This document shows, in pieces, positions 8,206 to 12,514 of a DNA stretch of 64,000 nt. Positions within the stretch are counted from its first letter, which is position 1. The number at the start of each line of letters is the position of its first letter. The translations under genes were made by a program, and so were the position numbers. Under the pieces are notes generated by a model. It worked only from the letters and a program-made list of their open reading frames with translations. It was not told where the DNA came from and searched no databases. The stretch comes from Escherichia coli (GTDB taxonomy: Bacteria; Pseudomonadota; Gammaproteobacteria; Enterobacterales; Enterobacteriaceae): assembly GCF_003790525.1 (NCBI RefSeq), contig NZ_CP033635.1. The stretch is one strand, 5' to 3'.

Positions 8206-8281
8206 TGGCTCCTCTGACTGGACTCGAACCAGTGACATACGGATTAACAGTCCGCCGTTCTACCGACTGAACTACAGAGGA
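8206..8281 (-). tRNA. asnW: tRNA-Asn (GTT anticodon)
   Basis: 76-nt reverse complement of the tRNA-Asn sequence also present at 10030 and 12439; ends in CCA. Confidence 0.95.
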
Positions 8282-8381
8282 ATCGTGAGAACGAGACGAA
8301 TATTAGCGATGCCCACCCATAATGTCAAAGCCTGTTTTTTAAATTTGAAATCGTTTGCTGAAATAATCTGCATTTTGTCGT

Positions 8382-9869
8382 TTATTCCGACACAGCTGGC
8401 TTTTTTTCACACTTTTGCGGTTCGGATCGAGGGTATTTCCACAGCCAACGTCCAGTAACCATTCGCCAGTAAAACAGCACGGCCCGCACAGCCCAGTCGG
8501 CAAACATTCCCATCCAGACACCAACCACACCCCAGCCAAGCATGATGCCCAGCACATAACCGACGACAACCCGGCAACCCCACATGCTCAACATAGAAAC
8601 CCACATGGCGTAACGGGCATCGCGAGCACCTTTAAATCCAGCGGGTAGCACCCATGAGGCGGACCAAATAGGCATAAATAAAGCATTTAGCCAAATCAGA
8701 ATCACAACGACATGTTTAACCTGTGGATCCTGGGTGTAAAACGATGCCATAACCCCGGCAAAGGGAGCCGTTAGCCAGGCGATGGCCGTTAATCCAAGAG
8801 TGGAAAGCCAGAACACATGCCGCAACTGAATCTCTGCTTGCGCTATCTGCCCTACCCCCAACCTTCGGCCTGTAATGATCGTAGAAGCAGAGCCGAGCGC
8901 ACTTCCGGGTAAGTTGATAAGAGCCGCAATTGAAAACGCGATAAAATTTCCGGCAATAACACTGGTCCCCATCCCGGCAACGAACATTTGGGTTAATAAC
9001 CGACCACTGGTAAATAACACTGATTCGACACTCGCTGGAATACCAATCCCCATGACTTCCCAGATAATGCTAAAATTCAGCGGTTTAAAATAGCTCTTTA
9101 ACGAAATCCTTAGCGCAGGATTAAAACCAATCGCCAGCACCCACAAAATTGCAACTGCGCCAATATAACGAGAAATGGTTAAACCCAACCCAGCCCCGAC
9201 AAATCCCAGTCCCGGCCAGGAGAAAAGGCCGTAAATCAATATGCCGCTAATAATAATATTAAGAATATTCAGGCTACCGTTAATCAGTAGCGGTATTTTC
9301 GTATTCCCTGCACCACGAAGTGCCCCGCTACCAATCAAAGTGATGGCAGCTGCTGGATAACTGAGTGCCGTCAGCTCCAGATAAGTCAACGCCAGTGCTT
9401 TAACTTCTGTCGTGGCATCACCCGCGACGAAATCAATAATTTGTTCGCCAAAATGATGAATAAGCGTTGCCAACAGTACGGCAAACAACGTCATGATCAC
9501 CAATGACTGCCGCGTCGCCACCCTCGCTCGTCGTCGATCCCGCTTACCGAGACTAAATGCCACAACGACAGTAGTACCAAGATCGATAGCAGCAAAAAAA
9601 GCCATAATGACCATATTGAAGCTGTCCGCCAATCCCACGCCGGCCATCGCATCTTTTCCCAGCCAGCTGACCAGAAAAGTGCTCAGGACACCCATCAACA
9701 GGACACAGGCATTCTCCATGAAGATAGGAACAGCAAGCGGGGTTATCTCGCGCCAGAACAACACTTTGTAGCTCTTGCGTTTAGCGTGCCAGCGAGTGCC
9801 GTGAACAACCTGGCGTAAAGCAGAGGAGATATTCAAAGCCGACCTTAATTGCAGAAAGTGAAACCACAT
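8382..9869 (-). CDS. yeeO: MATE-family efflux transporter; start taken at internal Met (MWHFLQLRS...) of the longer ORF 8382..10022
   Basis: multi-TM MATE-like ORF; synteny between asnW and asnU. Confidence 0.85.
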   Translation of the reverse strand: MWFHFLQLRSALNISSALRQVVHGTRWHAKRKSYKVLFWREITPLAVPIFMENACVLLMGVLSTFLVSWLGKDAMAGVGLADSFNMVIMAFFAAIDLGTTVVVAFSLGKRDRRRARVATRQSLVIMTLFAVLLATLIHHFGEQIIDFVAGDATTEVKALALTYLELTALSYPAAAITLIGSGALRGAGNTKIPLLINGSLNILNIIISGILIYGLFSWPGLGFVGAGLGLTISRYIGAVAILWVLAIGFNPALRISLKSYFKPLNFSIIWEVMGIGIPASVESVLFTSGRLLTQMFVAGMGTSVIAGNFIAFSIAALINLPGSALGSASTIITGRRLGVGQIAQAEIQLRHVFWLSTLGLTAIAWLTAPFAGVMASFYTQDPQVKHVVVILIWLNALFMPIWSASWVLPAGFKGARDARYAMWVSMLSMWGCRVVVGYVLGIMLGWGVVGVWMGMFADWAVRAVLFYWRMVTGRWLWKYPRSEPQKCEKKPAVSE

Positions 9870-10029
9870 TTCAAATAATGAGGGAGAATCAGCAAAGCTG
9901 CAAAGATTTTCGCCAACAAATTGTCTGCAAATGCAACAAACTGTTGATAGAAACGGCAAACAGTTGGGGAATTTAAAAATCGGGTTTGACAAAAGATTTT
10001 TCGCCGTTAAGATGTGCCTCAACAGCGAT

Positions 10030-10105
10030 TCCTCTGTAGTTCAGTCGGTAGAACGGCGGACTGTTAATCCGTATGTCACTGGTTCGAGTCCAGTCAGAGG
10101 AGCCA
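10030..10105 (+). tRNA. asnU: tRNA-Asn (GTT)
   Basis: TCCTCTGTAGTTCAGTCGGTAGAACGGCGGACTGTTAATCCGTATGTCACTGGTTCGAGTCCAGTCAGAGGAGCCA. Confidence 0.95.
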
Positions 10106-10114
10106 AATTTCTGA

Positions 10115-10142
10115 AAAGCCCGCTTTTATAGCGGGCTTTTTG
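10115..10142 (+). terminator. rho-independent terminator after asnU (GC hairpin AGCCCGC...GCGGGCT plus T run)
   Basis: hairpin and T tract read in sequence. Confidence 0.7.
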
Positions 10143-11093
10143 CTATATCTGATAATCAATTTCCTCTTCACTGTTTTCCATCACCTGCCGCTTGATATCC
10201 TCAACTGACAGTCCTGCATTACAAAGTTCCAGAAAGCGCCAGACATAGTTACGCTGAAGTTGTCCTCGCTTCAGTCCCAACCAGACAGTATTAGCATCGA
10301 AAAGATGCCGCGTATCCAGACGGATTAAATTCTCTTCCTCTTGTTCGCCGCTGGATTGTTCGGCAACTAATCCGATCCCAAGCCCAAGAGCAACATAGGT
10401 TTTAATGACATCAGAATCCTGCGCACTTAATACAATATCTGCCAGCAAACCTTTGCGGGCAAATGCGTCATCAATACGTGAGCGCCCCGTAATCCCCTGT
10501 CGGTAAGTGATTAACGGCCACTTCGCTATTGATTCCAGCGTCAATGGTGAAATTTGCGTCAAGGGATGATCGTGTGGAACAAGCAAACTATGGTGCCAAC
10601 GAAACCACGGGAAGGCGACGAGCTGCGGGTCATTACTCAAACGCTCGCTGGCGATACCAATATCAGCTTCGCCATTTTGCAACAATGTCGCAATTTCCTG
10701 TGGCGTCCCCTGGATTAGCCCGAGCCGAACCTCCGGGAAAAGTTCGCGAAAAGCTTTAATGACCTCTGGCAAGCTATAACGTGCCTGAGTATGCGTCGTT
10801 GCAATAGTGAGAACGCCAGACGTATCGTTGGTAAACAGGTCTGCAAGCCGACGAACATTACTGGCTTCATTCAGAATACGTTCTGCAATGACCAGTAATG
10901 CTTTGCCCGGTTCAGTCATGCCCAGCAGTCGCTTACCTCGTCGAACAAATATTTCGATGCCAAGTTCATCCTCCAGTTCCCGAATATGACGGCTGACGCC
11001 TGACTGTGAGGTAAAAAGCATATTCGCAACCTCTGTCAGGTTGTAATCCTGACGTGCAGCCTCGCGGATTATCTTTAGTTGTTGGAAATTCAC
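10143..11093 (-). CDS. cbl: LysR-family regulator Cbl
   Basis: 316 aa ORF with N-terminal LysR HTH; conserved position next to nac. Confidence 0.9.
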   Translation of the reverse strand: MNFQQLKIIREAARQDYNLTEVANMLFTSQSGVSRHIRELEDELGIEIFVRRGKRLLGMTEPGKALLVIAERILNEASNVRRLADLFTNDTSGVLTIATTHTQARYSLPEVIKAFRELFPEVRLGLIQGTPQEIATLLQNGEADIGIASERLSNDPQLVAFPWFRWHHSLLVPHDHPLTQISPLTLESIAKWPLITYRQGITGRSRIDDAFARKGLLADIVLSAQDSDVIKTYVALGLGIGLVAEQSSGEQEEENLIRLDTRHLFDANTVWLGLKRGQLQRNYVWRFLELCNAGLSVEDIKRQVMENSEEEIDYQI

Positions 11094-11194
11094 GGTAAAC
11101 TCCGGGCAGTTCAGATTTCCCGTTATTGTTAAAGTCTAATGCCCGGCATAACAAATAATAAAAACCCGCATCTTATTCCATTCCGATATAACAC

Positions 11195-12112
11195 TTAGCT
11201 CACCAATTGCCACTGCCTTTTTTCCATCACTGGAGAACTAATCACTGACATTAACAACTCTTTCACTGCCTGTGCCTGTGGCGAGAAGTTCGCTCTGGCG
11301 GGTAAATTTAATGACAAAGAGAGACTCATGGAAGGAGTGGTAATGCGTGACATCCACCCATTTACTGCGCCACATAACGAACGCGCGGCCGATTCGGGTA
11401 ATACTGCAACGCCCATGCCGCTGGCAATCGCTGCGGTAAGCGTGGCAATAGACTCAATTTCACCAATAACTTTTGCCGTGAGTCGCCGTAGGGAAAAAGC
11501 CTCATCAACACGAAGTCTAATAGCACTGTAATCACTGGGGAGAAAGAGGTTCATTTTCGCAATAGCATTCACATCAACGCTTTGCCCCGGGCAATCTTGA
11601 GTACCTACCAGAAAAAGATCTTCTTTCAGCAAAGCCTGACTGGATACACCAGCCACAGGGGAATGCTCATAAATCACCGCCATATCGAGTTGGTGATTTA
11701 TCAATTTTTCGTTAAGCACTGCACCACTATTTTCATGAAGATAGATAACGATCTCCGGAAATTCAGCGCGAACCGCCTGTAATAAGGGCATGGTGATGGA
11801 TGACGCAGCGGTTCCTGGTGCAAAGCCAATCGAGACTTGCCCCGATAATGCCTGACCAACGTTATGCACCGCCAGTTGGGCCTGTTCACACTGACGTAAA
11901 ATGGCCCGCGCATGGGTATAGAGAATTTTTCCGGCGTCTGTTGGCGTAACGCCCCGCTTTGTACGGATCAAAAGTTGTTGATTTAACTCACCTTCCAGTG
12001 TGGCAACCTGCTGGCTGAGCGCTGGTTGTGCGATATGCAATACTTCAGCAGCCTGGGTCAGGCTACCAATATCTACAATTTTTACGAAGTATTTCAGGCG
12101 TCTGAAGTTCAT
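11195..12112 (-). CDS. nac: nitrogen assimilation control protein Nac (LysR family); start taken at MNFRRLKYF
   Basis: ORF 11195..12142 with LysR HTH; synteny. Confidence 0.9.
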   Translation of the reverse strand: MNFRRLKYFVKIVDIGSLTQAAEVLHIAQPALSQQVATLEGELNQQLLIRTKRGVTPTDAGKILYTHARAILRQCEQAQLAVHNVGQALSGQVSIGFAPGTAASSITMPLLQAVRAEFPEIVIYLHENSGAVLNEKLINHQLDMAVIYEHSPVAGVSSQALLKEDLFLVGTQDCPGQSVDVNAIAKMNLFLPSDYSAIRLRVDEAFSLRRLTAKVIGEIESIATLTAAIASGMGVAVLPESAARSLCGAVNGWMSRITTPSMSLSLSLNLPARANFSPQAQAVKELLMSVISSPVMEKRQWQLVS

Positions 12113-12166
12113 GTTGCCTCCGGTTTTTAAGAATCGGCCCAAGTGCCGCCATTACTTACAACCAGA

Positions 12167-12184
12167 TTGCAAGATGCTTGCCAG
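12167..12184 (-). promoter_or_regulatory. candidate sigma-54 promoter (-24/-12) upstream of nac
   Basis: minus-strand CTGGCAAGCATCTTGCA matches the TGGCA-N6-TTGCA spacing of sigma-54 promoters; nac is known to be sigma-54/NtrC dependent. Confidence 0.55.
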
Positions 12185-12438
12185 TTTTATTTTGGCGTTG
12201 ATGTACAAGCTAACCAACTGTCAAATAAGAGATTATGATAGATTCGTCATTTGCTCCTTTAATCAGCTGTCGCGTTCCCCTGCCCTATAAAAGGAGGGTA
12301 TGCACCACGATGGTTCATTACCCAATAAGATTGAAAGCTCACCACTTTGTTGAAATTGACAGCAAACAAACAAAAAAATGCATTTCACCCTTTGACATCA
12401 CCATGCACTGCCATTAATATGCGCCCCGTTCACACGAT

Positions 12439-12514
12439 TCCTCTGTAGTTCAGTCGGTAGAACGGCGGACTGTTAATCCGTATGTCACTGGTTCGAGTCC
12501 AGTCAGAGGAGCCA
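12439..12514 (+). tRNA. asnV: tRNA-Asn (GTT)
   Basis: identical 76-nt tRNA-Asn sequence. Confidence 0.95.

Follow-up and report, generated by a model that had tools for sequence, protein, structure and literature searches.

The asnW-asnU-asnV tRNA-Asn cluster of an Escherichia coli chromosome: empty island attachment sites beside an accessory island that is probably not tRNA-delivered

The stretch analysed here (hereafter the window) is a 64,000-nt segment of an Escherichia coli chromosome (assembly GCF_003790525.1, contig NZ_CP033635.1), which carries the tRNA-Asn genes asnW, asnU and asnV and, beyond the adjacent cob operon, a large block of accessory DNA (Table 1). ARAGORN detected exactly three tRNA genes in the window, all of them tRNA-Asn with the anticodon GTT, and the Rfam tRNA model RF00005 placed them at the same three positions at 72.6 bits (gathering score 29). 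Pairwise, the three genes are identical at 76 of 76 positions, which bears out the initial annotation, made from the sequence alone, in its description of three exact 76-nt copies within 4.3 kb (the segment measures 4,309 bp), and the gene names proposed there match the annotation of K-12 MG1655. The strand given for each copy was also correct, but the orientation was wrongly described as alternating, the actual order being minus, plus, plus. The matching genome SMS-3-5 has a fourth identical copy, asnT (+), at a distance of 5.2 kb upstream of position 1 of the window, and the median number of matching places for the tRNA among 5,426 complete E. coli genomes is four, which is consistent with four gene copies. 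The preferred reading, to which we assign a probability of about 0.93, takes the feature to be E. coli's canonical tRNA-Asn cluster, with all sites empty and in the majority, K-12-like orientation, and the DNA beyond cobU to be a separate entity that was not delivered through a tRNA gene.

The interval 7000-19000 matches many genomes at 100 %, including XDL and SMS-3-5; over 1-63914 the window is 99.99 % identical to SMS-3-5, and over its last 6.7 kb it is 99.97 % identical to XDL. The annotated order in SMS-3-5 is asnT(+)-yeeJ-GT9-shiA-amn-yeeN-asnW(-)-yeeO-asnU(+)-cbl-nac-asnV(+)-ldtA-cobT-cobS-cobU. In this genome asnT directly precedes yeeJ, and therefore no high-pathogenicity island (HPI) is present there and asnT is empty. 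In K-12 MG1655 (NC_000913.3), asnT, asnW, asnU and asnV correspond to b1977, b1984, b1986 and b1989, respectively, and the genes, their names, strands and order, as well as their neighbours (yeeN, yeeO, cbl, nac, ldtA and cobTSU), are as in the window. K-12 is colinear with the window over 1-16337 at 98.5 %, so the tRNA segment of the window is in the non-inverted state, with no sign of rearrangement. K-12 differs in its IS5 and IS2 insertions and in the other cargo past cobU (flu, yeeR and others), none of which is of substance for the cluster.

The state of the attachment sites (attB) was judged from the sequences that follow each tRNA gene. The neighbouring stop codons are spaced as in K-12, that of cbl lying 37 nt past asnU and that of ldtA 55 nt past asnV, and the same holds for the terminators; since both are as in K-12, all three window sites are empty. 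At none of them is the junction broken at the tRNA 3' end, and none is adjoined by an integrase gene, as would be expected of an occupied attB. In a survey of the 5,426 complete genomes with queries of 1,076 nt that each had a tRNA 3' end at their centre, the yeeN/asnW junction was found intact as in the window in 4,974 genomes, the asnU/cbl junction in 5,176 and the asnV/ldtA junction in 4,664. In the non-intact genomes, the match stops no more than a few nucleotides from the tRNA 3' end.

The initial annotation had also pointed to tRNA-Asn genes as island integration sites, which was confirmed for other genomes and not for this window: the pks island, the HPI and an integrase/RHS island abut asnW, asnV or asnT elsewhere. 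A tyrosine integrase with an RHS island occupies asnV in strain H6 and asnW in EFF60, the HPI is located at asnV in CRE389 and at asnT in FHI_NMBU_03, and the pks island with its integrase adjoins a tRNA-Asn gene in MS20654. Islands abutting tRNA-Asn 3' ends are confined to a minority of genomes. In sequence from pks+ strains, the far end of pks carries a 16-nt repeat of the asnV 3' end, joined to the asnV 3' flank. The attachment sites of the pks island and of the yersiniabactin HPI, which use a P4-type integrase, are present in the window, including the 16-nt 3' end, but all of them are empty, and the only related DNA is a decayed 0.6-kb relic of colibactin (clb) genes that lies away from any tRNA. 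In the complete genome of FHI_NMBU_03 (NZ_CP019455.1), all tRNA-Asn junction queries yielded a single match, asnT with the HPI, with none of the flanks of asnW, asnU or asnV present; the entire asnW-asnV region may be lost from this strain, leaving it with only one tRNA-Asn gene.

The three genes constitute repeats in both inverted and direct orientation, with arms of 85-104 nt. Identity reaches slightly past the mature tRNA, extending over 84-85 nt at 100 % for asnU/asnV and asnW/asnU and over 104 nt at 96 % for asnW/asnV, and with identity over about 85-104 nt the copies can serve both as attachment sites and as substrates for homologous recombination. Their earlier description as recombination substrates is borne out by inversions and a deletion that end in tRNA copies in other genomes, and describes the locus rather than this window. 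The junction of an asnW × asnV inversion (nac-asn-yeeN) was found in 265 of the 5,426 genomes, including Nissle 1917 and NU14, and that of an asnW × asnU inversion in 34, with yeeO alone being flipped in ES7. A synthetic junction representing an asnT × asnW inversion matched one genome, ET5, while a synthetic yeeO-asn-ldtA junction matched 35. One of these 35, AH20K059, shows a clean deletion of cbl-nac via asnU × asnV that leaves three copies, and in 2016C-3878 the yeeO-asn-ldtA junction is part of a more complex four-copy arrangement. We infer that RecA-type homologous recombination made these inversions and deletions.

The pks+ strain MS20654 combines an inversion with an occupied site, its order being yeeN-asn(-)-nac-cbl-asnU(-)-yeeO-asn(+)-integrase-clbS...clbA-IS3'-16-nt repeat-ldtA. 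The window aligns to the far flank of this pks island from exactly 12499, the first position of the last 16 nt of asnV, which indicates that the island sits at the site bearing the asnV 3' flank and that yeeO-asnU-cbl-nac was inverted by an asnW × asnV exchange. A P4-type integrase beside a tRNA with the asnW 5' (yeeO) flank was found in 367 genomes, 102 of which fall in the 80-90 % identity band; these numbers are consistent with 265 pks cases and about 102 other islands at native asnW.

Much of this is established. The 4309-bp region has been described both as a hot spot at which the pks island and HPI integrate and as an invertible segment, with pks insertion at all three copies (PMC8209727, PMC8461471, PMC6458436). 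The asnW/asnV inversion was detected and validated by polymerase chain reaction in UTI89 cultures, without the need for Fim recombinase overexpression (mSphere 2019, PMC6458436), and the same paper cites Ou et al. 2006 as its source on the difference between CFT073 and UTI89. The pks island is known at asnV, and the inversion has been proposed as a later event (PMC8461471); the reconstruction by Wami et al. is the same as that reached here from the sequences. The inversion polymorphism of pks+ B2 strains (CFT073/Nissle versus UTI89/K-12 type) involves the same 4309-bp segment and the same repeats, whereas in the window the segment is non-inverted and K-12-like. Published knowledge thus covers the asnT/W/U/V cluster, the fact that pks and the HPI attach there and the 4,309-bp asnW-asnV inversion. 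No mention of the yeeO-only inversion or of the cbl-nac deletion was met in PMC8209727, PMC8461471 or PMC6458436, and both are minor extensions of the published principle. Mild novelty is confined to how often the different tRNA-mediated rearrangements occur in the population and to the decayed clb relic.

The accessory DNA does start just beyond the cob operon, as first annotated, and its left boundary after cobU is formed by a truncated cbi gene and a fragment of an IS4 (insertion sequence) transposase. Homology to EFF60 ends within the cbi gene, at window position 16239, and after cobU that strain continues with a longer cbi gene, a cobalamin riboswitch and pocR (EFF60 locus 16884-18588); at the same position 2016C-3878 (locus 11139-15076) runs on to pocR, pduF and pduA/B. 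The right end lies past the window. In SMS-3-5 and XDL, from which it was read, the island measures about 76 kb, reaches tmaR (yeeX) and has at its end a CP4-44-like yeeS-yeeT-cbeA-cbtA-yeeW module together with a transposase fragment and a small open reading frame (ORF) of the EutP/PduV family. The cbi-cob-pdu layout is the same in Salmonella. EFF60 and 2016C-3878 have kept this region, with cobT-cobS-cobU followed by the cbi gene as in the window, whereas in the window cbi is cut at 16239 by the IS4 fragment, pocR and pdu are gone and the sole survivor is a PduV-family fragment by tmaR, outside the window. The cobU-tmaR interval is thus read as the place at which a cbi-pdu cluster was truncated at both ends and replaced, presumably through IS activity. 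A search of a literature collection found no primary paper on the loss of cbi/pdu, for which the E. coli strains that keep pocR-pdu at this site serve as the evidence.

In its location between cobU and tmaR and in the cbi and PduV-like remnants at its ends, the island corresponds to the hot spot named genomic or pathogenicity island cobU (GI/PAI-cobU) after its flanking gene (PMC7545054, PMC3573123). It shares with GI/PAI-cobU of extraintestinal pathogenic E. coli and with the cryptic prophage CP4-44 of K-12 the position, the left-end genes (the cbi remnant, the yoeG/yoeH region and the TonB-dependent receptor), the right-end yeeS-yeeW module and the PduV-like fragment, whereas its cargo, about 76 kb rich in genes for aspartate, asparagine and C4-dicarboxylates, is different and its receptor gene is a pseudogene, probably the 'Hma' listed for PAI-cobU. 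Both the receptor gene and ibrB, which are broken in the window lineage, are intact in the B2 strain MS20654. K-12 shares window positions 16334-18114 at 99-99.9 %, within CP4-44, and MS20654 shares 12499-21940 at 97.7 %, through the receptor and ibrBA, so that the truly lineage-specific DNA starts near 21.94 kb. Presence of the island is variable and its composition atypical: the cargo block at 23-45 kb occurs in 137/5426 genomes, and the GC content along the region ranges from 0.32 to 0.57.

The clb relic directly follows ibrA and comprises two fragments. The first (21993-22334) joins the 5' end of clbQ with the 3' end of clbP at 86.6 % identity to the pks island, the second (22337-22595) is a piece of clbO at 83.0 %, and about 1.45 kb of clbP is absent between them, the order clbO-clbP-clbQ being kept. 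Over the three codon positions, substitutions number 13/9/9 in one fragment and 11/7/16 in the other, and no triplet spacing is kept by the indels, a pattern that points to neutral pseudogene decay; divergence by substitution is 9-13 %, even over codon positions (the BLAST identity of 83-87 % includes indels). Descent from a diverged functional clb cluster was rejected on the basis of the same counts, which lack third-position enrichment, and of the non-triplet indels. The full-length relic is present in 147/5,426 genomes, a further set of 334 records matching at 80-90 % only being the intact pks island. An exact 30-nt scan for the clbP'/clbO' junction of the relic in one representative genome per species gave 0 hits. 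[quoted passage not shown]

The relic shows that clb DNA once reached the cobU island. It is doubtful, if conceivable, that it is the trace of an old acquisition of a colibactin island in the cobU-tmaR hot spot, in a non-B2 lineage and separate from the B2 acquisition, and its precursor may first have entered via a neighbouring tRNA-Asn site; this reading draws on its identity of 83-87 % to a pks island that is otherwise strongly conserved and on its even substitutions and non-triplet indels. A further reading, that the cobU island derives in part from a pks-type element once located at asnV or another asn copy and later separated from it by inversion, deletion or recombinational replacement, leaving the relic, is improbable. 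It would account for the gene order and for the orientation of the relic relative to asnV, which is that of the intact pks island relative to its tRNA, and it would fit a region prone to inversions and deletions through tRNA copies, in which pks is known at asnV with an inversion proposed afterwards. The relic, however, lies to the right of the block ldtA-cobTSU-cbi'-TonB receptor-ibrBA, and the same block, at 97.7 % and in the same order, stands to the right of the intact pks island in the B2 strain, where pks is to the left of ldtA; no single tRNA-mediated event yields this geometry. The even divergence of 9-13 % marks an old, neutrally decaying fragment. In B1/A strains, moreover, pks has been reported at an IS66-flanked non-tRNA locus near flu, which makes an IS-mediated arrival of the clb DNA an equally plausible source.

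Still less probable is the association implied by the initial annotation, namely that the accessory DNA beyond the cob operon entered through asnV, with att-like direct repeats at its flanks and an integrase gene beyond the window. In its favour, islands do integrate at tRNA-Asn genes elsewhere, the DNA beyond cobU is accessory and restricted to certain lineages, the relic consists of genes usually borne by asn-tRNA-integrating elements and is oriented to asnV as an intact island is to its tRNA, and the far end carries a CP4-44-like yeeS-yeeW module of a kind typical of P4-integrase islands. The island does not, however, abut a tRNA 3' end, since the core genes ldtA-cobT-cobS-cobU (3.4 kb), syntenic in K-12 and all compared strains, intervene, and the 3' flank of asnV, with its terminator and the ldtA stop codon within 55 nt of the tRNA, is the empty site of K-12. 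The boundaries found consist of cbi' and IS4' at the left and of PduV' and a transposase fragment at the right, and pocR-pduF-pdu occupies the same position in other E. coli. Searches with the 25-nt and 16-nt 3' ends of tRNA-Asn, allowing up to 3 and 2 mismatches, respectively, returned only intact tRNA genes, and so did those with fuzzy 16-30-mers allowing up to 8 mismatches, which covered the window, SMS-3-5 from asnT to tmaR and XDL up to tmaR; in the window the 25-nt and 16-nt ends are confined to the three genes, chance expectation being none. The same search recovered the distal pks repeat as a positive control. Similarly, tblastn with the integrases of the pks island and of the asnV island found no P4-type integrase in the window or in the island extension to tmaR, the controls being positive, and no integrase is annotated from cobU to tmaR in SMS-3-5/XDL. 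The initial annotation had itself named a lack of tRNA-derived direct repeats at either boundary as what would refute it; these repeats are missing, as is the integrase that it proposed as a check, and the association is thus refuted on its own terms. Taken together, these comparisons argue that the island beyond cobU is independent of the tRNA-Asn sites rather than anchored to one.

A very recent segmental duplication as the source of the identity between the three copies, in place of old paralogues kept alike by selection and gene conversion, would suit the 100 % match over 76 nt with its short flank extensions and is hardly credible, given that the flanks are unrelated past about 4-28 nt, that the neighbouring genes differ for each copy and that the four-copy arrangement is found in essentially all of the 5,424 matching genomes (median 4 places).

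According to the preferred reading of a canonical, empty cluster beside a separate island, asnT, asnW, asnU and asnV are four identical paralogues that are putatively transcribed separately and for which two additional roles are well documented. Their 3'-terminal 16 nt act as the attachment site for the P4-type tyrosine integrases of the pks island, the HPI and other islands, with any copy being usable. Exchange between inverted copies (asnW versus asnU, asnV or asnT) generates inversions and exchange between direct copies (asnU versus asnV) deletions. At cobU-tmaR an ancestral cbi-pdu cluster was truncated and replaced by IS-associated DNA.

Nothing contradicts the identification of the cluster, and the points that weigh against this reading concern its details. 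The promoter-like site 5' of each copy (TTGACA-16/17-TAATAT/TAAGAT) and the hairpin-plus-T terminator-like sequences 3' of asnU and asnV are consensus matches only, which shuffled sequences match as often. Genome counts are not counts of independent events, and the 265 genomes with the inversion probably represent a few clonal pks+ B2 lineages. Auvray et al. suggest that pks integration and the inversion went together. Located 6 kb past cobU, the decayed clb relic shows that an element normally borne by an asn tRNA once gave DNA to the cobU island, so that a remote historical link of this island to a tRNA-Asn site retains some small residual probability.

In the window, an integration hot spot of medical relevance is seen in its empty, ancestral-type state, and the neighbouring island represents a different, non-tRNA hot spot, formed where the cbi-pdu cluster was lost. 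The cluster carries little weight as a discovery. The counts of rearranged genomes (265, 34 and 1 for the inversions and 35 for yeeO-asn-ldtA) quantify how chromosomes are rearranged by tRNA repeats of 76-104 nt, and the clb relic may offer a minor clue to the colibactin genes' early history in E. coli.

Table 1. Features of the tRNA-Asn cluster and of the left part of the adjoining island (positions in the window)
Feature	Position	Strand	Remarks
asnW	8206-8281	-	tRNA-Asn(GTT); 3' end faces yeeN; attB empty; ARAGORN, Rfam, K-12 naming
Putative asnW sigma-70 promoter-like site	8300-8328	-	TTGACA-17-TAATAT; consensus match, four upstream regions aligned
yeeO (MATE exporter)	8382-9869	-	Mechanical ORF reaches 10022; segment flipped in asnW × asnU recombinants
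asnU	10030-10105	+	tRNA-Asn(GTT); attB empty
Terminator-like hairpin after asnU	10114-10144	+	Repeat/flank analysis
cbl (LysR-type regulator)	10143-11093	-	Annotation, K-12 match
nac (gltC in some papers)	11195-12112	-	Annotation, K-12 match
Putative asnV sigma-70 promoter-like site	12392-12420	+	TTGACA-17-TAATAT; consensus match
asnV	12439-12514	+	tRNA-Asn(GTT); attB empty; last 16 nt = 12499-12514
Terminator-like hairpin after asnV	12521-12548	+	Consensus match
ldtA-cobT-cobS-cobU	12570-15943	-	Core genes; separate asnV from the accessory DNA
cbi ('cobalamin biosynthesis protein') remnant, truncated	16095-16238	-	Homology to strains with cbi'-riboswitch-pocR-pdu ends at 16239
IS4-family transposase fragment	16247-16435	-	Adjoins the breakpoint; left boundary of the cobU-tmaR island
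TonB-dependent receptor pseudogene, frameshifted	17615-19761	+	Position of K-12 yoeA
ibrB (internal stop; 20132-20776) and ibrA (PAPS-reductase family)	20132-21993	-	Last block in common with the B2 strain
Decayed colibactin-gene relic	21993-22595	-	Directly after ibrA; two fragments

Beyond the relic, from 23427 to 64000 and on to about 92 kb in XDL, the island is rich in additional copies of aspartate/asparagine and C4-dicarboxylate genes, namely argH, several dcu transporters, dcuR, aspA, pepT and dcuC, as well as an ansB gene about 96 % identical to the core ansB, an isoaspartyl peptidase/asparaginase and an Asp/Glu racemase. The presence of a cargo rich in aspartate and asparagine functions beside a tRNA-Asn cluster looks like a coincidence. 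Two aspartate ammonia-lyase genes (33748-35198 and 62837-64000) are 99.4 % identical over about 1.45 kb and stand as an inverted duplicate, which is a larger recombination substrate than the tRNA genes; the second copy runs past the window end and is cut by an IS3 element in SMS-3-5.

Several minor elements were recognized in the island by Rfam. Group II intron domains at 38948-39236 (+) and 39275-39721 (+), scored at 140 bits (RF02001) and 72 bits (RF01998), precede a short ORF with a maturase annotation and probably represent a truncated group II intron. The small RNAs isrC (51872-51994, minus strand, 150 bits) and STnc490 (58604-58727, minus strand, 122 bits) were also detected. In K-12, isrC lies between yeeP and flu, in CP4-44, and its copy in the window therefore reveals a CP4-44-like fragment midway along the island. 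A fragment of a galactonate dehydratase gene (22700-22957, minus strand) is located beside the clb relic, and a complete second dgoRKAD(T) cluster follows about 31 kb on (about 53223-56533), which suggests an internal rearrangement of the island. Upstream of the window, at locus positions 4471-5638 of SMS-3-5, a prophage with a frameshifted integrase gene is inserted at a tRNA-Ser gene (serU), about 1 kb from asnT, and serU is thus another occupied tRNA site near the tRNA-Asn cluster.

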